A DNA stretch of 64,000 nt, taken from assembly GCA_024679065.1 (NCBI GenBank), contig JAGIQG010000017.1, positions 32,178,001-32,242,000 of the forward strand, read 5' to 3'. Source of the DNA: Sphyrna mokarran (lineage: Eukaryota). The translations under genes were made by a program, and so were the position numbers. The notes below the pieces were generated by a model, which was not told the DNA's origin, did not search any database, and worked only from the letters and a program-made list of their open reading frames with translations. Below, in pieces: positions 5,976-60,477 of the stretch; position 1 is the first letter of the stretch; each line of letters opens with the position of its first letter.

Positions 5976-6180
5976 AAAAGCAAAATTCTGTGGATGTTGG
6001 AATCTGAAACAAAAACAGAAAATATTGGAAAATATCAGCAGATCTGACAGCACCTGTGGAGAGAGAATAGAGCCAACGTTTTGAGTCAGGGTGACCCTTC
6101 ATCAGAGCTCTGCTAAAGGATCATCCTGACTTCAAACATTGGCTTGATTCTCTTTGCACAGTTTTGGTTCTCTGCTGATG
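5976..6180. mobile_element. Penelope-derived palindromic element with two opposed degenerate hammerhead cores
   Basis: Imperfect hairpin at 6053-6161 centred on cagag|ctctg. The minus strand reads CTGATGA-AGGGTC-ACCCT-GACTC-AAAA-CGTT. Confidence 0.7.
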
Positions 6181-18905: not shown

Positions 18906-18990
18906 TCTCGGGATTCCAAATGTATGGATAAATATGAGTGCTGATACTTGCTGAGGTTAAGTTTGCCAAGATTTCATGCTGAATTTTACT

Positions 18991-19305
18991 CACCAAGGTT
19001 CGAAACAATTGCAGCAAGACTTTACTCCTTTATTCAAATCCCCTTGCAATAACTAGCACTGTACAATTTGCCTTCCTAATTTGCATTTTAACTTTGTGAA
19101 TTAAGAACAAGACACTCATGTCCCTTTGAACATCACTTCCCATTCTTTCACCATTTAAAAAATACACCGCATTTCTGGTTATCCTCCTCAACTGGATAAT
19201 TTCCTATCCATTCCTGAAAGTTCACTTAATCTACCTAAATCCCCTTGAAAGTTTCTGACAACTCGCATTCTGGTTGAGTGTCAAAAACAAATTTGGAAAT
19301 ATTAC
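18991..19305 (-). mobile_element. CR1 RT fragment (left half; host of the Gypsy insertion)
   Basis: The right end encodes NISKFVFDT (=ISKFADDT) on the minus strand. The element continues at ~24800. Confidence 0.7.
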
Positions 19306-22300
19306 TGTTATTAAAAACTATACTTACCCTATTGTGCTTTGAAGTTGGGAACTTCAACTTCTAACAGATCTTGGACTTTTTAAGTATGCACAAGCTGGGA
19401 ACAGGATGTGCTGTTCTGCAATTCGTAAGTTCTCTGTGCCCAGAAAAGGCTCAGTGCCTATGTGCTTACAGTAAGTGAAATAAAGGTACAAGAATCTGGG
19501 TAAGGAATGGAGTACCTTGAAAAATTTGGGTCCCAGGCAGGGCAGGAAGAGGAGACTGAGAAGCCCAAAAAAGGGGAAAGAGGACTGGGAGAAATTCCCA
19601 AAAGAAAGTCCCAAGTAGAATACAGAGATGGACAGAAGCAAGTTCCAATTAAAGTTGAGGAAAAAGAGAAGCAAAGAAACAAGATCCAAATAGGAAAAGG
19701 GCTGCTGGCCTTTGGTACAAGGGTACCACTCTAGGGCAGTGGTATTCTGCATGGCGCGGTCAAAGACCTGAAGTTTGTGTAATTTGGTGTTTGAGTACAT
19801 ATTTGGAAATTCAGGTGAACAAAATTGCAGGTGACAAAATTGAAACCCTTCGAGATAGACTATTGTTGGTGATGTCCAAGTTTACTAATTGAAGAGAGCT
19901 CACAAATAACCTTGAATATCCAAGAAGACAGATCAAGTTTGGTGACTACATGCTGCAAGTCATTGGAGCAGCAGTGTTCTGCTCATTGTGCCGAAGAGCT
20001 GAATTTTGTTTCTAATTTGGTGCTTTGGTGAGTACTCAGCAACATAAAGAAACAGGACCTCACAAGACAAGATTGAAACAGTGAAAGGTGGGCTGTTGTT
20101 GAAGCTGTCTGAGTTGGAGTGACTGTTGGAAAGAATTTCAAGGTGAGATCTTCAGAGGTGAAGATTTTAACCCCTTGTGAAAGCCATGGATTTCAGTGAG
20201 ATCGATTGACCCAGTCTTACCAGTGTTTGGATGAGTTGTTGAGAAACCTGTGGAATCTGTTTTAGTTGCATCTGTCAATTGTTGTGCAGTGTGGTGTATT
20301 CAACCACAGTTTTCCTGTTGATTCATACGTAATCCATATTAGCTTTGAATATTATATTGTAAATTGCTTTGTTGCTCTGACCTTGTATAGTAAAGTTCAT
20401 TTTTATTTGTTCAAAACAATTGGAATCTTGTGACTCTTTTTGCTAAGCAATTGTATTGAATCTAAGAGTTTGCCTAATTTAAACAAAACTTCAGTGGTCC
20501 CAGGCCGAATCTTACCAAAGACTTGGGGGTCTGGCCAAGGATCATAACATAAATTGGAAGAAGATCTTGTAGAATTCCAAATGCATGGATAAATATAAGT
20601 GCTGATATTTGCTGAGGTTAAGTTTGATAGGATTTCCATGTTGAATTTTACTATACCAATTGAAAATCAGAATTGCTTTGTTAATTGCTGTAACTTCTCT
20701 GAAGAGGGAAGATTTATCTTTGAATTATTTCAGCAACTAACCTTGGCTAGGCTAATTGCATAAATGTTGAGTTAGAGTTAAAAGCAGGAGCAATGAAAGC
20801 AGATGTAAATGAGGTAATAGCACAGCATCTAGCATTGGAAATCAGTTGCAGATAAAGCAATTTAAGATGGAAAAATACTGGAAGAGTTTAAACTGCAGAG
20901 AGAAAAGTCACTGAGGGAGGAAAGATGTAAAGAAAAAGAGCAAAAGCTCCCAAGAGAGAAAGAAATTAGATAGCTGGACTGGCTAGAGGAAAATTTAGGA
21001 TTACTGGATGAAAAGGAGCGGAGTAGTTCAGGTGAGGAAATGAGTCCTATTCCGAGCTTTGATATTACAAAGAGCCTTTGCTTATTGTGTAAATTCACGG
21101 AATATGGAGTTGAGGTATTTTACCTCATTTGAAAAGGTTGCTGCGAAACTAAAATAGCCAAAGGACACAAGAACTCTCATTTTCCAAAATGTTTTGGTTG
21201 GTCAGACTATGGCTGTGTATTCTTGCCTTTCAGAAGAAAGATTTTCCGATTATGAGGTAGTTAAACTGCTGTACTTAATGCTTACGAGCTAGTCTCTGCA
21301 GCATACCAATTGGAATTTTGAACTTCAAAAAAAAGATTGAGTAAGACATTTATAGTATTTTCTAAGGAGAAAGAAATGATGTGTTTTCAATCACAGAAGT
21401 CACAACAAACATTGGGAATTTGAGGGCGCAAACTTAAGAATTTCAAAATTAGCTATTAGATCATACCTGGAATACCGTAAGTTTTCTAGGATAGGAGAGG
21501 CAGTAGTTTTGGCTGATGGATATGAAAAATCATGTGGGCAAGTCGTGGGCAGTAGATCTCCAGTTTTAAATCCTTAGGGAAACTGGGGTAATAGAAAAGA
21601 GTCTAACGTTATGCAGAAGGCAGAAGCTTTTTCCAGTCAATAAAAATGATGATGTCGAGAATAAAAAGGATGCAAAGAAACTGGGTTTTTTTTGTCATAA
21701 GGTAGGGCAGCTCAAAGTCAATTGTTGGAAGCCTAATGATAAACTGGTCACAGTCCTATAAATGTTTAAAGAGCTTACATAAAAAAAGGGTGATAAACTC
21801 ATAGCAATAGTACAAGTGAAATGCGTTCCCTCAGACCTAGAAAGGAGGATATGACTCAGGGTAGTCCAGATAATTTTCCCTTGAAGTGAATCATGCCAAT
21901 GCAGGTTTTAGAAGTTTTATCTCAAAGGGAAAAATGTTTGCTCATGCTTGTGTCAAATAAAGTAAATAAATCAATATTTTGAAAAACATTCGGGCAGATA
22001 AGTCATTGATGGTGGTTGATGCAATTTGTATTCCACATAGTTTGATGAAGTGAACTTGTTCCCTTGTATAAAGTCAGTTTACAATGTGACTGAGTAAATG
22101 GAATTGTTACTGTGGAAATTGTTCCCAGTTTATCTATTGAAGGGGTAAATTTTTTTCTGGACACTGATTTGGCTATCATAGATACTTATCACCGTGTTAC
22201 TGTGATGCAGCCATTGTTCGATTCTGCTAATCTTGTCAAAATCCTAAAAATTATTATGGCCACTCATGAGAAGCATGTTGCCAATAATGAGCAATTAAAG

Positions 22301-24799
22301 GAAAATCTGATTAGTGTTGAGGACCCAACTTCCATACAGGAGAAATGAATTTGCAAATGAAAAACAAGATCTAGTGAGAGCATTTGAGTGTTGGTGGTAG
22401 GAAGTAGAATACTTGAATGGGAACTTGAAATGTCTAAATGATAAACTTGTAGAAGCAAATTCAACAAAGGTAGATCTTAAGGTAAAACTTATTGAACTTC
22501 AAGCGTCAGAAGTCTCTATTAAGTATCATCAGATGCCTTGACCAGGAAAAGATGTTGGTGACGAACCAGAATAGTTTGTTGAAAGCAGAATTAAAAATCA
22601 AGACTGAACTGTTGGAACTGCATAGTGAAAAGGGGAGTTGAACTCTGATACGATCGGGAGAACGTGGAAGATGAGACATTGATATATGAGAGCAGATCCA
22701 GACATTAAAAGCACATGAGGAAAATTAAAAGAGAAAGATTCAAGAGCTCTTGGGTGAATTGAAAAGTGATCAATAACCATACAAGAAAGATTTTAAAAAT
22801 GCAAAGTTGTTAAGCTTGTATAAAGGTTTTGCTGGTAACTGAAAAACTTAAAAAAAAACTTGAAAAAGAATTGGAAAATAAGAGAAAAAACAAGTATATA
22901 AATAAAATTACAAAAAAAGTGGAAATGATAATTCAATTTTGGTGACACCAATAGGAAGCATATGAATATATTCCGAAGGCTGTGGCACAAATTGTGAATA
23001 AAGTAAAATTGACTTGAGTACAGATAGCAAAACTCCCTTCATGCAAATATATTAATCTGTTGTTGATCAAAATAACGAAAAGAGAAAGCCTGTTATGAAG
23101 GCATTATTGAGGAAGATAATTTTGAAGCTCGTTGTGAGCAGACATACCCAGTTCCCTTGGCAAATTTAAAGAACCTTTTGGAGGCATGTTTCCATTAACA
23201 GAAAGAATGAAGAAAATCCCCTTGCATTCTTCTGTATTAAAGTTGCAATACCTATGCAGAAGTCACTTATTGCATATAGTGTGATAAATATGCATATGTG
23301 AATAGGGGAAGGCAGCTAGGGTACTGGTTTGCGGTCACACCAGCAAAATTGAAATTGAGTTCAAAACAGTTCAAGCTGGCTAAGATGTTTCTGAAGAAAA
23401 TTTTAATTTATCTTCAATACCTTTGGTTGATCGTGAAAAGATTGTAGCCAAAAATCACATAATTATTGGTATTGTATTTAGAGTTTAAAGAAAGTGTGCA
23501 GGATAAAAGGCAAATTCTGAATAAGATAGTTATTTGATGTTTAAATCCTCTTATTCCTACTTATTACTGACCTTTATTTTGGTTAAATTTTCATAACTAT
23601 AATACAGTAAGTATAACTGTAGAACAAAATGAAAAATTTATCTGCACTGAAGCGTTCTTTTTTCCAAGGGGATGTAAGCTCTACTTACTCAGATGAATTC
23701 AGAGGTTGGGAACTCCTAACAGACCTTAAACTTTGTGCATTTGTGTGCCTGGAGTGGGCTATGCATGCACAGTACTACAATTTATAAGTACTTTGAGCTT
23801 AGGGCAGGCCAGCACAATTGAATATAAAGGGGGAAAGTGTGTCTCAGGCAAGGGTCTGAGGAGATCCCAAAGAGAGGTTAAAGGATGGGGAGAGATCCCA
23901 AAACAAAGTCATGGATAAGGGATAGAGACAAAAGGAAGAAACAGACCCCAAGTTAAGGAAAAGGAGAGGATCAGAAAATGGGTCCTGAACAGGAAAGCAC
24001 TGTGGACCAGTAGGTTAAGAGTTTCCCTTTGGAGCATTAATATTCTGCTTGATGTGACAAAAGATCAGATGCTGAGTCTGTAATTTGCTGTTTAAATGCA
24101 TTCTTGGGAATCCAAGGGAGCTGAATCTCAGGAGATGCAATTGAAACTCTGTTAGGTTGGCTGTTGGTGATGCCATCTGTGTCTGGCAATTGAAGCGGTT
24201 TCAAAAGAATCCCTGAAGAACCAAGAAGGCAACTGAAGACTAGTGACACTGTGATATGAGCCACTGGGGCAAAGTTACCCCTTTGGAGTATTTGTGTTCT
24301 GCTTGGTGTGGCTGAAGAGCTGAAATTGTGCTTGTGAGTTGGTGATTGAAGGAGTACTCTGGAATCCAGAGGAACAGAATCTTGTCAGACAAGACTGAAA
24401 ATGATCCACCTTGCAGGATTTCAAAGTCATCTATGTTGGATTGACTGTAGGAAAGAATTCCAAGGAAGATCTTCAAAACTGAAGATTGGAATTCCTTGAG
24501 GCAGACAGTTTCAGTGATATTGGCTGCTACTAATGGTGTTACTGATGTCTGAGTGGAACTGTTGAGTAATTCGTGGAATTTGTTTTAGTCGCGTTTGTCA
24601 TCTATTGTGCAATGTATGTTCATGCGTATTTGGCTTCTTAATTCATGTGTACCTTATATTTGCCTTATCATGGGTGGGGGTGGGTGGTGGTGGGGGGTGA
24701 GCATGTGGTAGCAGCGGCAGCTGGGTGGGGGTGGTCGGTGGTGGTGGTTGGGAAAGGATCATAATTTCAGATGGTTCCCACATCCAGATCATCGTGATA
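19306..24799 (+). mobile_element. Ancient Gypsy-type LTR element: LTR ~19306-20549, gag-pro remnant, LTR 23672-~24799
   Basis: LTR1 ends atcataaca. A purine tract aagggga precedes the tgtaag start of LTR2, and the two LTRs are colinear but strongly diverged. Gag remnant FDITKSL..KFTEYGVEVF..SCLSEERFSDYEVVK..LNAYELV (21058-21300), knuckle FCHKVGQLKVNCWK (~21690), decayed protease INILKNIRADKSLM (~21970). Confidence 0.8.
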
Positions 24800-32030: not shown

Positions 32031-34543
32031 TTTATTTTCCTGAAATGAAAGAGAGGGTTCAAGATAAATCTAGAAATGGTTATATTTCACTGATAAAAGC
32101 CAGATGATTAAAACAGAAATTAGCTCTTAATCTGTAAACTATTCCATAAATGTATAGTAGGCTTAAAACAGCAGTATTATAGGCACATGAAATTGCAATG
32201 GGATTTACCAGTAATTTTAAGACTTCTTGTTATATTGAAATATGTTTTCCCATGTTTTGGTCTGATAATGATTATCTGAATTGGGTACAAAATGAGAATT
32301 TAAAAGCCCCTTGTAGCCACAAACTAATTTCACGACTTGTGTTGTGAAGTTTGTTGAAATCCACCAGGTAACAGGGTTGAGACAAAGTCTCGATGCACAT
32401 TATGCAAATGTTTAAACATTGTGAATGGTCCATGAAGGTGACAGAGTTCTATTTAAAATTAGGCTGGCAATTCTGACTTTCCATCCAGCCTTGGCAACAA
32501 AGGAGCAAATGAAGCACAGTTCTCAGAGTATTCTTGAATCAAACAAACTAAGATGATGCAGGTAGATTTTGGTTAGCACTTAACTCATAAAGACGTAAGG
32601 AGGATGGAAATTGCATATGAACGTTTTCTTCTTAATATGAGTATGGTCTGTTGCAATCCTGAAATCTTGTTAATTTCAGGAAGGTAGATGATATGATACA
32701 TCAACGTATCATATTGTTACTAACTTTTTAGATCAATGTTTATTACATTTCTTTAATATTTTATAACTGTAGTGGGGCTGGATATTCATATCAAAACCAT
32801 GTGAGGAATAAGAGGGATTCCAATATATTAAAAAGAGTTGACATACCAAGATATTCTATTCATTGTCCTGCAAATGTTAACAAAAGTTCTGTCAAGATGC
32901 TAGGACCAGTGAAGACTATAATTGCACATGATGACCAGTGAGCTTGTTAGATTTATTTCGAACTACTGAGAGTTAAAATAGTTTGTTTTCATGTATTTGA
33001 ATGAGAAGCAATAATACATGTCAATATTCAGATAATCAGTTAAAATAGTTTGAATAGCCATGTATTGTGCTTCATCCAAACATGAGTGGTTTTGCATTTC
33101 AATGGGCATGTTTACTTCTGGAGGAAGGCCACAACCATTAAGTGGCTTGAGTTGAAATCTCTACTCCTCAGCAACAGGAACTTCTCCCTCAGAGAGCTGC
33201 TAATCAAAAAGGTTATGAGCTTTCCAGTACATGCAGCATTTGCAAGATTTATTTGTGGTTCATAATTCCATTTATTGGAAATAATTATCTCCAGTTACTT
33301 CAACTTGTGAAATCTCTGGTCTATGCTCTGTACCCTGTCAGTTTGAAAATAATGGTATTATACTGTGGCAAATCCAATAAGCAGATTACTGCAAGTAAAG
33401 ATAATTCTTAATCTCTGGTCATGGGGCTCAGCAAAGGGAATTATCAATAAAATACATCTTCTGGATCGTAGGGGAAATGCTTTGGCTTATGGGAACTTTT
33501 GTGAATTGTGAAAGAAAACTGTTCAATAAATGCATTGCAAATCTAATCTATTGAATGGGGTGGGATATTTCACTCTGACACGGCACATCCTGCGTGGCAG
33601 GTGTGTTGAGTCAGGCAAACATCCAGTAATTGGGGTGCGACTGGAACATCCTACCAAAGAACCTATGTGAATGGATTGTGATGAGTCTTGAAAGGGGAAT
33701 TATGGAAAATGACAGTGGGGAGAATGAGATTTTGGAGTAGTACTGAAGAAATGGCTGCCACACATGTGGCTTTCGTCTGTTAACTGGTGATAAGCTTTTA
33801 CTGTTTCAATGAATTATTGGTATTGCAAAGTAAATTTTAATTATGTTAGACAACCAGAAAACTTTTTAAGTGAAATGTCATGTGACTGAATTACTCAGAA
33901 ATGCTGCAATTATGATTATTGTAAACATACTCAAATGCATTATTTGAATTATAAAAATAGCAACTTTTACACACTTAAAATAAAAAACGTACTTGCAAAA
34001 TTTCAAAAATTGAAATTTAACCATTAGCTGATATTAGAGGCTGCAAAGTCTCCAATTACAAAAATATGCTGCAACAAAATTACCAATTTCTTTATTTTTG
34101 AAAAAGGTTGTGCTGCAATAGCTATTTTATCCAAGACATCAATCTTATTTGGCTGCCAGAATCACACAAGTAGTAAACTCTTCATTTTACCAGGAGCTTT
34201 CAATATGTTTGTTCCTGTTATTCATGGCATCAAGAACACTCGCACACTTTACTTAAGGAAAGTATCTTGAGGTTTGAATTTTGGAGCATTGTTTGTCTAT
34301 ATTGTAGAGAAATTAAGCCAAATGCTTTACAACGTATGACCATTTCATCAACGTGTTCTAACTAATCCATACACTCATAATTAGAGGAAAAGTAAAGTAC
34401 TTGGGTATTTTTTAAATCAATTTTTTTAATAAGATTCTGACTATCATTGTTGAATGTGTCACTATAAATAACCAATAGAACACATTCAGTGGTATTTTAA
34501 TCAATTTGATTTACTGTCAAGAATACACATTAAGGCTGCAGCA

Positions 34544-34857
34544 CTGACTCTTTAAGAACTGGCCCTTAAGTGCAACAATGGTAGGAATTCGCTAAAATAA
34601 GGTATACCTATAAATTAGTAATTATTATTATAAATTAGCAATTAAGACTGCAGATACAGTAACATAAGTTCAGTGTAGTTTCTGTAGAGTGCAAACCTGT
34701 GTGAGGTAAACTATGGTTCTAGCAATATTCACTGAAAAAAAAAACTCTTCATACCTGATTGAACTTGTGCAGAAGCCATTACTAATTTATAGGTATACCT
34801 TATTTTAGCGAATTCCTACCATTGTTGCACTTAAGGGCCAGATTCTTAAAGAGTCAG
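34544..34857. repeat. Inverted repeat, ~80-bp arms (34544-34622 / 34778-34857), 155-bp spacer
   Basis: ctgactctttaagaactggcccttaagtgcaacaatggtaggaattcgctaaaataaggtatacctataaattagtaat matches the reverse complement of arm 2 with a single 1-nt indel. Confidence 0.95.
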
Positions 34858-49826: not shown

Positions 49827-49928
49827 GGCAACTTTGTTGCTTGCATGACAGCCATCCTGAGGCAGATGGAAGATTATCATTATGCCCATTTAATCAAGAC
49901 ATATGGGAAGATGAGATCAGATGTTGTG
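49827..49928 (+). CDS. DOCK1: DOCK1 (DOCK180) internal coding exon, 102 nt, phase 0/0, region between DHR-1 and DHR-2
   Basis: The acceptor is ccttttttcacctcAG and the donor is GTaagt. It translates GNFVACMTAILRQMEDYHYAHLIKTYGKMRSDVV, nearly identical to recalled human DOCK1 GNFVACMTAILRQMEDYHYAHLIKTFGKMRTDVV. Confidence 0.95.
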
Positions 49929-52843: not shown

Positions 52844-52938
52844 GACTTTCTGATGGAAACATTCATTATGTTCAAGGATCTCATTGGAAAGAACGTCTAT
52901 CTTGCTGACTGGGTTATAATGAACATGATGCAGAACAA
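52844..52938 (+). CDS. DOCK1: DOCK1 next coding exon, 95 nt, phase 0/2
   Basis: The acceptor is tactctatttcAG and the donor is GTaagt. It translates [31 protein letters not shown](K), in frame with the previous exon and matching recalled DOCK1 [32 protein letters not shown]. Confidence 0.95.
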
Positions 52939-56530: not shown

Positions 56531-56699
56531 TTATATAAAAGCATAAAATTTTGCCGTGGCTTTTGAATCACATGTAGGCCAACCAGGTAAGGACGGCAGG
56601 TTTCCTTCCTGAAATCAAGAAATATAAAATAATAGAGAGCTACAAATCACTTAAGTGTCAATTTGAAATTTTTAAGACTGAAATTGAAATATTATGTTC

Positions 56700-56864: not shown

Positions 56865-57040
56865 TGCATTCGTTTACTGCCCATCCCTTATTGCTTTGAA
56901 CTGAGTCCATTGCAGAGGGCATTTAAGAATTAACCACATTGCAATGGCTCTATAGATTTTCTTCCCTCAAAAAAATCAGTGAACCAGAATTTTTTTTTAT
57001 GACAATCAACAATGGTTTTATTAGACTTTTAATTCAAACT
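56865..57040 (-). mobile_element. tRNA-derived SINE fragment (family of 11378-11720)
   Basis: tttactgcccatcccttattgc..aattaaccacattg..agattttcttccc..gaaccaga..attagacttttaattc. Confidence 0.7.
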
Positions 57041-58025
57041 ATTTACATTTGGAAACGTCACTATTTAAACTTACTCGATCTGCAGGAAGATAGTAATTAT
57101 AGTTATGTTTGTTTATCATCCAAATAAACCCAATGTTAAAATGTCCACACTTAGCTGTTACATTTAATTGTTACACCTATTACTTATCAATCTAATGCCA
57201 GTAAGTGTTTTGTTCAGATGTTCAACATTAATCTTATGATTTACTAGTGCCTGTAACACCACAACATAGGATAATACTCTTTTCCCCCACAAATGATGCC
57301 ATCTTTTCAATGCATTCATTGTATGTCAATACATATGACAATAATAAATCAAATCAAATATTTTCTGAAGAATATTTTGCCTATTTTTGCATATTAACAG
57401 AAAATAAAGCCTTAAGCTAACAAATTCAAAAAGGGACATATTTCTCAATGAAGTGACGTCATTTATCTGTTAAATTGTCTTTTCTGCATTCATTAAAAAT
57501 TTCCTTGAAAGCTTTAGTCCTTCCCACAAACCTGGGCATCAAGTTGATCTCTATGTAGAGAACTATGATTCTATTAATTGAACACAGATGAATTTGTTGA
57601 ATTTGAATTTGTTAGCTTAAGGCTTTATTTTCTGTTAATATGCAAAAATAGGCAAAATATTCTTCAGAAAATATTTGATTTGATTTATTATTGTCATATG
57701 TATTGACATACAATGAATGCATTGAAAAGATGGCATCATTTGTGGGGGAAAAGAGTATTATCCTATGTTGTGGTGTTACAGGCACTAGTAAATCATAAGA
57801 TTAATGTTGAACATCTGAACAAAACACTTACTGGCATTAGATTGATAAGTAATAGGTGTAACAATTAAATGTAACAGCTAAGTGTGGACATTTTAACATT
57901 GGGTTTATTTGGATGATAAACAAACATAACTATAATTACTATCTTCCTGCAGATCGAGTAAGTTTAAATAGTGACGTTTCCAAATGTAAATAGTTTGAAT
58001 TAAAAGTCTAATAAAACCATTGTTG
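57007..58025. repeat. Perfect inverted duplication: 424-bp arms (57007-57430 / 57602-58025), 171-bp spacer
   Basis: A base-by-base comparison found no mismatch. The duplicated ORF tails NNGFIRLLIQTIYIWKRHYLNLLDLQEDSNYSYVCLSSK at 56939(+) and 57905(-) confirm it. Confidence 0.98.
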
Positions 58026-59852
58026 GCTGATAGGATTAAGGAGAATCCTAAAGCTTTCTTTCGATATGTTAAGAATAGAAGATTGGTTAGGGCAAGATTA
58101 GGGCCAGTCATAGACAGCAGTGGGAAGTTGTGCGTGGAGCTGAAGAGATTGGAGAGGCACTGAATAAATATTTCTCTTCGGTATTCACGCAGGGAGATGT
58201 AAATGTAGTTGTGGAGAACACTGGGATACAGGGTTGCAAACTGTAAAGTATTGAAGTAGATAAGGAGGATGTGTTAGATATTCTTGAGGGTTTGAAGTTA
58301 GATAAGTCCCCTGGGCCGGACGGGATTTACCCTAGGATTCTCTGGGAGGCAAGAGAGGAGATTGCAGAGCCTCTGGCTCTGATCTTCAGGTCCTAGTTGG
58401 TTACGGGTGTGGTTCCGCAGGACTGGAGGATAGCGAATGTGGTCCCATTGTTTAAGAAGGGGAAGAGAGACCTTCCTGGGAATTATAGGCCAGTGAGTCT
58501 TACTTCTGTGGCGGGCAAGGTATTGGAGAGAATTATTAGGGATAGGATTTATAGTTATTTAGAGAGAAATGAATTGATTGGGGATAGTCAGCATGGTTTC
58601 GTGAAGGGTAGGTCATGCATTACTAACCTCATTGAGTTTTTTGAGAAAGTGACCAGAGAGGTGGATGGGGGTAAGGCGGTTGATGTAGTATATATGGACT
58701 TTAGTAAGGCGTTTGATAAGGTGGCCCATGGAAGACTTCTACAGAAATGCAGATGTGTGGAATAGAGGGTGATTTAGCTAATTGGATTAGGAATTGGCTG
58801 GCAGATAGAAGACAGAGGGTGGTGGTTGATGGGAGATATTCATCGTGGAGTTCGGTGACGAGTGGTGTGCCGCAGGGGTCTGTTTTGGGGCCCCTGCTGT
58901 TTGTAATTTTTATAAATGATCTGGATGAGGGTATTGAGGGATGGATCAGTAAATTTGCAGATGATACTAAAGTTGGTGGAGTGGTAGATAGTGAAGAGGG
59001 TGTTTTAGTTTACAGAGTGACTTGGACAAGTTGCAGAGCTGGGCCGAGAGGTGGCAAATGGAGTTTAATGTGGAAAAGTGTGAGGTAATGCACTTGGGCA
59101 GGAACAATAAATGTGTAGAGTATAGGGCTAATGGTAGGGCTCGTAATAGTGTTGAGGAACAGAAGGATCTTGGTGTATGTGTCAATAGATCACTGAAAGT
59201 AGGCAGTCAAGTGGATAAAGTTGTTAAGAAGGCATATGGAGTCTTAGCTTTTATTGGTAGGGGGATTGAATTTAGAGCCGCAGCATCATGTTGCAACTGT
59301 ACAAAACTCTAGTGCGGCCGCACTTGGAGTATTGTGTGCAGTTCTGGTCCCCACATTATAAGAAAGATGTGGAGGCATTGGAGGGGTACAGAGGAGGTTT
59401 ACCAGGATGTTGCCTGGTATGGAGGGCAGGTCCTATGAAGAGAGGTTGAAGGATTTGAGGTTGTTTTCGTAAGAAAGGAGGCGGCTAAGAGGGGATCTTA
59501 TTGAAGCATATAAGATGATTAGAGGTTTAGATAGGGTGGACAGTGATAGCCTTTTTCTAGGATGGAGAAAACTAGCACGAGGGGACACAGCTTTAAATTA
59601 AGGGGTATGAGTTATAGGACGGATATCAGAGGTAGGTTCTTACTCAAAGAGTGATTAGGGAGTGGAATGCCCTGCCTGCAGCTGTTGTAGATGCGCCAAG
59701 TTTGGTGGCGTTTAAGAGGTTAGTTGATAAGTATATGGATGGGAAGGGAATGGTTTCGTTAGGAGGGGCATTGCTTTTTATTTTGGTCGGCACAACATCG
59801 AAGGCCGAAGGGCCTGTTCTGTGCTGTATTGTTCTATGTTCTATGTTCTATG
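58023..59852 (+). mobile_element. 5'-truncated, relatively young CR1/HER1-type LINE (~1.8 kb of ORF2 RT + 3' UTR)
   Basis: [52 protein letters not shown] and KFADDT, with several stops and frameshifts. Tail (gttctat)x3. Confidence 0.97.
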
Positions 59853-60477
59853 ATAGAATCAGAACATGTTCAATAAACTCAATTCCCTACTATCTTAAGT
59901 ACATAAGTCTGCTAATGTTAAATATTTCACTTAAACTGTGAGCAATTTTACTCCAATTATTCCTCTAACAAATTTTGAGAAAAACTAGAGGATAAATTTC
60001 ACACTTCCAATCAGTAAAGCTAGTTTTTTTTAAAAAAACAGTGCTTTGAATGTTTATGGAGAAACAAACTATTCTGAATAACATACTTGTTCTACTTTAT
60101 AATTATCAGTGAGCATATCATGTGCTGAGAACCAGTGTCTTCTCTAATCCTATTAGAACATACTTTTCATTAAAGGTGAATTGGGAGCCTCCAAGACCTG
60201 TACTTTTCTCATACTGAATTTAAACATGTTCATTACTGACCATTTTAAAACAGAGAGGAAGAGAAAGTTATTGAATTTTGCAAGCAACTACAGGTTTTCT
60301 TAAAGGAAATGAATGATGGCAGAAGAGAGAAGAAAAGTAAGATGAGATTAAGAAAAACTACCTTTGGGAAGTAAGTTGCAATGTGGTAATAGTGAAGTGA
60401 TTGGGAACAATAGATTGAAAGGAGAGAAGGATTCAAGATTCAGAAAGATGCAGGTGGTCATTCTCCTGAATCTTAAA

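Follow-up and report, generated by a model that had tools for sequence, protein, structure and literature searches.

Inverted duplication of flanking DNA at the 5' end of a CR1-like LINE in a DOCK1 intron of Sphyrna mokarran

Inverted copies of target DNA joined to a newly inserted LINE have been described for human L1. Insertions with an inverted duplication at the reciprocal end are reported from one cell clone and one tumour and are accounted for by a model in which a resected end anneals to itself, primes synthesis and is joined to the reverse transcription (RT) end (bioRxiv 10.1101/2024.12.14.628481, March 2026 version); this is also the mechanism that a sequence-only reading had proposed for the locus described here. 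An earlier version of that work mentions the reciprocal-end class briefly (PMC11702581). In yeast, local fold-back inverted insertions at double-strand breaks are reported to be mostly 5-34 bp long (up to more than 150), with a 41-nt loop (PMC11724301). Polymerase theta is described as priming on a single base and, by reiterated priming, leaving at least 2 overlapping inserts copied from one flank; about 85% of its templates lie within 10 bp of the breakpoint, the inserts are mostly shorter than 25 bp, and snap-back products are a minor class in C. elegans (PMC5068794). A search of titles and the opening parts of abstracts, with subscription papers mostly outside its reach, returned no published CR1 or shark case of such an inverted duplication, which does not imply absence from print.

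The locus lies in a stretch of 64,000 nt from Sphyrna mokarran (GCA_024679065.1, contig JAGIQG010000017.1, positions 32,178,001 to 32,242,000, forward strand), henceforth the window, which contains no N anywhere. Positions are those of the window, and features are on the plus strand unless stated otherwise. The host gene is DOCK1. One coding exon, at 49827..49928, is 94-97% identical to named cartilaginous-fish DOCK1 proteins and matches Pfam TPR_DOCK; the next, at 52844..52938, was located by tblastn with 7 chondrichthyan DOCK1-type proteins. The exons match named DOCK1 proteins from sharks, rays and one chimaera, and the feature is in the following intron, so that its earlier placement within DOCK1 is confirmed. 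No DOCK1 exon was found by tblastn after 52938 up to 64000 (same 7 proteins) or in positions 1-49826, and the intron before 49827 therefore exceeds 49 kb.

At Rfam gathering scores, the feature has no match; the sole match in the window is an isolated, full-length 5.8S rRNA (1683-1838, 79 bits), probably a pseudogene or the head of an rRNA-derived repeat, which is followed by a SINE-like repeat at about 1.9 kb. Elsewhere in the window are an imperfect, MITE-like palindrome of 108 nt (6054-6161, 80%) and two diverged direct duplications, 18913-18990 / 20574-20652 (90%) and 19556-20292 / 23856-24615 (65%), in a region (18913-24615) that shows strand skew and possibly represents remnants of a larger element.

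The feature consists of two arms, 57007..57430 and, on the minus strand, 57602..58025, which are exact reverse complements (424/424) separated by 171 nt, as had been noted from the sequence. The similarity ends abruptly at either end. This is the longest among the 17 inverted pairs listed in the window, and it scores 765 bits vs at most 33.7 bits in block-shuffled controls (n=3). An old SINE-like repeat, which we take to be a SINE, covers the outer edge of arm 1 (56880..57070, limits approximate) and aligns across 57007 with 2 other copies, near 1.9 kb and 11.4 kb. Because this repeat continues through 57007, arm 1 is in its native context and represents the original (template) copy, and arm 2 is the derived, inverted one. 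The arm is thus local DNA that begins within a SINE rather than a terminal inverted repeat (TIR), as first described, and no third copy of it is present in the 64-kb window. The SINE at the arm edge lacks (at 56945-56955) a 33-nt segment, which another SINE fragment, lying about 350 nt upstream (56545-56615), does contain; these could be two fragments or the product of an older local rearrangement.

Long, perfectly paired stems in a pre-mRNA can in principle undergo A-to-I editing or be sensed as dsRNA. RNA folding predicts the full 424-bp stem (-741 kcal/mol), and the dsRNA stem envisaged for DOCK1 pre-mRNA stands to that extent, although it follows trivially from the sequence. Nothing points to a function of this stem, which is most likely a structure without one.

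Arm 2 runs directly into a 5'-truncated CR1-like ORF2 (58023..59755; protein alignment and Pfam RVT_1) that comprises the end of the linker region, the reverse transcriptase and the C-terminus. RVT_1 was found in 3 of the 5 ORF2 pieces scanned, 2 of these above the curated cut-off. The copy is 94% identical over 449 codons to an intact relative (P0005) and 82% identical over 573 codons to a second relative (P0007), at residue 363 of which it begins and which carries PF14529 and PF03372. The 3' end of the element (59756..59852) bears a (TTCTATG)n tail, and 4 other copies in the window have similar ends. In LINEs of the CR1 clade, the 3' terminus is a short tandem repeat instead of poly-A, 5' truncation occurs, and in full copies an APE-type endonuclease precedes the ORF2 reverse transcriptase. 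The element has such an end, such a truncation and a reverse transcriptase; we take the element at 58023..59852 to be a CR1, the named matches themselves bearing no clade names. These matches are shark, ray, bird and turtle proteins, the closest named LINE matches being from Scyliorhinus (83%) and Hemiscyllium (81%).

Homology to ORF2 begins at 58023 in 6 of the 10 aligned relatives and further in for the other 4. The TTG at 58023-58025 is common to the end of arm 2 and to the ORF2 frame, where it encodes the conserved leucine of L-A-D-R. The reported end of arm 2 at 58025 and its sharing of TTG with ORF2 are thus borne out, and microhomology of up to 3 nt at this join is plausible. Two distant relatives have TTG at the same leucine codon and no similarity upstream. 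A scan of contigs from bacterial and archaeal genomes yielded 3 loci from 200 candidate stretches, with 61-78% protein identity, too distant for dating the CR1 and of use for the TTG codon only. Two short contigs in a bacterial genome record (L001:1-1760 and L003:1-1016) encode a LINE reverse transcriptase of vertebrate type, with 74-78% identity to the query, and are likely host contamination of the bacterial assembly.

The unique spacer between the arms (57431..57588, about 158 nt) would be the loop of the fold-back, and its last 26 nt (57563-57588) the target-site region. At the inner junction, position 57588 is followed by a 10-nt inverted copy of 57419-57428 and 3 nt (together 57589..57601), and then by arm 2, which restarts at 57430; such a 10-mer occurs in 13 of 62,875 control windows. 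This order reads as overlapping rounds of 9-10, 6 and 424 nt from one template spot, the insert presumably being left by abortive copying rounds.

The opposite end of the CR1 also appears to be related to the spacer. Seven nucleotides across the end of the tail recur directly at 57563-57569, and the adjoining 3'-junction tract (59853..59874) contains 9-nt and 8-nt inverted matches to 57566-57574 and 57577-57584. Under a strict criterion (a 9-mer plus an 8-mer from the last 40 nt of the spacer), no control reaches this match (0/20,914 query and 0/31,870 target windows), under a summed criterion 3/20,914 and 15/31,870 do, and a looser coverage measure is reached by 81/20,914, counts that overstate the significance since the windows were picked after the matches were seen and 6 nt of the 9-mer mirror the CR1 tail itself. 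We read the real chance level as roughly 1 in 100 to 1 in 1000. Taken together, these matches suggest that the end of the spacer and the right flank are two sides of one break, such that the fold-back would have started at the CR1 target site. Candidate target-site duplications (TSDs) amount to 4 nt (59860-59863 = 57585-57588) or 5 nt (59862-59866 = 57580-57584). The earlier statement that no TSD is evident is therefore right insofar as there is no clean one and too strong otherwise: a TSD-like overlap between the start of the fold-back and the RT breakpoint may exist, for which there are these candidates and the 7-nt tail-end match, and the inverted 9- and 8-mers link both ends.

A second fold-back, in which no LINE ORF2 match was found, lies 22 kb away (34529..34857, no strand assigned) and is a mirror image of the main event. 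Its arms, 34544-34622 and 34778-34857, are identical in 79 of 80 columns and enclose a spacer of 155 nt. Beside the inner junction there is again a 10-nt re-copy (34629-34638; 14/63,528 controls), and the inserted arm is flanked by a direct repeat matching at 12 of 13 positions (34529-34541 / 34641-34653; 67/63,526 controls), which opens with a TT-AAG motif that we take to resemble an L1 endonuclease site. The loop from break to template start is about 137 nt at 34.5 kb and about 158 nt in the main event; with n=2, a tie to nucleosome length is speculation. Because the 34.5-kb event has the same junction pattern, a cellular process likely lies behind both fold-backs, and because it contains no LINE, the product need not include one.

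At 57589-57610 and at 34623-34640 there are short inserts that overlap and share one flank as their template, as described for polymerase theta (PMC5068794), and this enzyme may have carried out the copying at the inner junction. The abortive rounds alone fit its usual insert size: the main tract of 424 nt is far longer and may need another polymerase. A pre-existing 10-bp microhomology serving as the primer is disfavoured, with copying restarting upstream of the 10-mer here and the 10-mer at 34.5 kb lying outside the direct repeat of that event.

The best explanation, which we hold tentatively and at somewhat short of an even chance, is that the inverted duplication is a repair scar of the CR1 insertion formed by fold-back of the left end. 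A staggered break would have opened near 57580-57588, and its right end would have primed reverse transcription from the CR1 tail, the cDNA stopping at 58023; the intact tail and the truncation are seen in the sequence, and the priming is taken from established LINE biology. The left end would then have been resected, and its 3' strand would have looped back by about 160 nt and, paired over 1-3 bp, primed at 57428-57430. Copying, possibly by polymerase theta, would have aborted after a short stretch once or twice, leaving the overlapping 10- and 6-nt re-copies, before a processive round copied 424 nt to 57007. Finally, the new end and the truncated cDNA would have been joined, with the shared TTG providing up to 3 nt of microhomology. 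One extra assumption is needed because the arms are perfect beside a damaged CR1: the CR1 defects would stem from a damaged source copy or from assembly (consensus) errors in the repeat, or the arms would have been homogenised later. Homogenisation by template switching is reported for short inverted repeats in yeast (PMC8604942).

The geometry argues for coupling: the derived arm is on the 5' (reciprocal) side and adjoins the truncation point, and arm 1 is local and original. As in the L1 cases (10.1101/2024.12.14.628481), an inverted copy of the flank is joined to the 5' end of the element, whose 3' tail is intact, and the priming reported there, on 2 bp, compares with 1-3 bp here. Unlike those cases, which are described with small hairpins at the inversion junction and a preserved TSD, the present locus has a loop of about 160 nt (158-171 nt, depending on whether the insert is counted) and no clean TSD; the L1 cases come from an induced human clone and a tumour, whereas this one involves a CR1-like element in an elasmobranch assembly, with reiterated priming and an apparent age mismatch. 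Yeast fold-back insertions (PMC11724301) share hairpin priming near a resected end, synthesis and joining, with 0-5 bp of microhomology; in contrast to the present locus, they are described with a pre-existing 10-bp inverted microhomology and no retroelement, and they come closest to the LINE-free 34.5-kb event. Among LINEs other than L1, the junctions of zebrafish ZfL2-2 and of R2 (PMC4245944, PMC2666801, PMC11371274) likewise carry flank-templated or antisense sequence between the target and the LINE 5' end, but as reported this consists of several extra nucleotides or mostly of cDNA self-copies, not of hundreds of inverted-flank bases.

The evidence that weighs against a single event is the apparent age of the CR1. 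Its ORF2 has 3 stops (58244, 58394, 59470) and 7 frameshifts, all -1 (near 58140, 58747, 58998, 59277, 59384, 59557, 59640), beside identical arms, a combination to which the sequence-only reading had already drawn attention. At the 388 codons where P0005 and P0007 agree, the window copy differs at 18, vs 4 private changes in P0005. Taken at face value, the 18 changes correspond to 2.1% per site and predict 18 differences between the arms; there are 0. Part of this divergence was inherited, because 11 of the 18 private residues are also found in two or more relatives (vs an expected 32%; P=0.011) and a stretch of 48 nt contains a cluster of 6 of them (P=0.002). This cluster, 16 codons at 59139-59186, is possibly a mosaic or a conversion tract from another subfamily. 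After removal of the tolerated changes, private change of about 1.2% remains, predicting about 10 arm differences (P(0)=4e-5). The stops alone give 4.8% divergence (95% range 1-14%), and under equal age 3 stops in the CR1 vs 0 changes in the arms have P=3e-4. The arms changed by less than 0.35% per copy, vs 1-5% for the CR1 by protein damage. The CpG clock leans toward a young CR1, with at most 1 of 31 informative bases decayed (the CpG ratio of the window is 0.24), and is compatible with 2% (P=0.07-0.44), ages of 0.5% and 2% being inseparable by this measure. Stop density in the CR1 is over half that in five other remnants in the window (0.52 vs 0.92 per 100 codons; the sixth remnant gave no hit and was left aside).

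Long-read consensus errors tend to be -1 shifts. The exclusively -1 indels of the CR1 suggest such errors, but this reading is without statistical support against the five other remnants, which over 980 codons have 9 stops and 8 frameshifts, the latter -1 in 6 cases: the frameshift to stop ratios, 7:3 and 8:9, do not differ significantly (P=0.42). Run context is uninformative here, half of the CR1 bases being in runs of at least 2.

The rival that profits most from these figures, unlikely on balance but a serious contender, is a sequence of two events: the CR1 would have inserted and aged by 1-5%, and a later break at or near its 5' junction would have been repaired by fold-back as at 34.5 kb, the join within ORF2 removing any CR1 sequence 5' of 58023. 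Identical arms beside a decayed CR1 then follow without an extra assumption, and the LINE-free fold-back shows that such events occur in this region. The cost is that the later break must have hit the correct side, no more than about 25 nt from where the CR1 had inserted, a coincidence that we put roughly at a few per thousand events; moreover, the 34.5-kb fold-back retained the direct repeat at its break and shows no deletion. The snap-back coupled to retrotransposition, as originally put forward, is partly supported: it has the geometry, the junctions at both CR1 ends and the published L1 model on its side and the age mismatch and the LINE-free event against it. Since fold-backs here need no LINE, coupling is favoured rather than demonstrated, and membership in the L1-type class depends on the assumed shared age; the two coupled routes together stand slightly above even.

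The second coupled route, which we regard as distinctly improbable, is led by the cDNA. The 3' end of the truncated cDNA would have jumped to the upstream flank at 57007 via the shared 3 nt and been extended in the direction of the nick, with slippage at 57419-57430, before joining the left end, yielding a product identical to that of the fold-back route. Read in this direction, the slips are consistent with re-priming on 4 and 2 nt; R2 cDNA ends are reported to prime synthesis on nearby target DNA (PMC11371274), and many of the extra nucleotides at ZfL2-2 5' ends are described as flank-derived (PMC4245944). This route needs the cDNA to invade a site 600 nt upstream with 3 nt paired; the 34.5-kb fold-back has the same inner-junction pattern in the absence of any cDNA, and the age mismatch is just as much of a problem here.

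The feature is very probably real. That arm 2 was created or made perfect by a fold-back read, an amplification chimera or the resolution of a repeat is very unlikely, although the arms are perfectly identical, the seven -1 shifts hint at an imperfect consensus and fold-back and palindrome artefacts of long reads have been described (PMC12870357, PMC6218980). Such an artefact would need two junctions, the second on a LINE 5' end, overlapping re-copies and a templated 3' tract would be unexpected of it, and the copies in the 34.5-kb event are not identical and are accompanied by a TSD-like repeat. An origin of the arms as TIRs of a MITE or foldback transposon, or by twin-priming inversion of the LINE, shares with the feature just the overall shape of long arms and a short spacer next to a LINE 5' end and has a negligible chance, because arm 1 is collinear with the SINE across its edge and has no dispersed copies within 64 kb, so that the arms do not bound an inserted element with a TSD, and because the inverted segment is local flank rather than element sequence, with no ORF2 similarity on either strand of 57001-58022 (arms and spacer) to the 8 relatives tested.

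The feature is best filed as a CR1 example, in a genome assembly, of the published L1 reciprocal-end inverted duplication, a kind that is itself already known. If the duplication was coupled to insertion, a rare outcome of L1 retrotransposition seen in cultured and tumour cells extends to another LINE clade and to a vertebrate genome assembly, and its junctions preserve the order of repair steps in LINE 5' joining, which is still debated. The occurrence of two scars in 64 kb suggests that loop length, association with LINEs and homogenisation of the arms could be measured by counting such scars across the genome. When the window was scanned for local inverted repeats old enough to have diverged, no pair of unique DNA with arms longer than 40 bp came up besides the two near-perfect ones; n=2 is too few to conclude that conversion is at work. 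A joint reading of both fold-backs, which we offer as a doubtful one, is that elasmobranch germlines routinely mend staggered breaks, many of which LINE endonucleases may have cut, by fold-back in two stages, first a 10-nt abortive copy and then processive copying on a loop close to nucleosome length (137 and 158 nt), and that the arms are later kept identical by arm-to-arm conversion or are quickly lost. Conversion or rapid loss of this kind would explain why an older CR1 has perfect arms next to it and why the window contains no half-decayed examples. If the two-stage fold-back is indeed routine, long, near-perfect inverted repeats would be numerous in the introns of these fishes, and a LINE would accompany some of them but not others.
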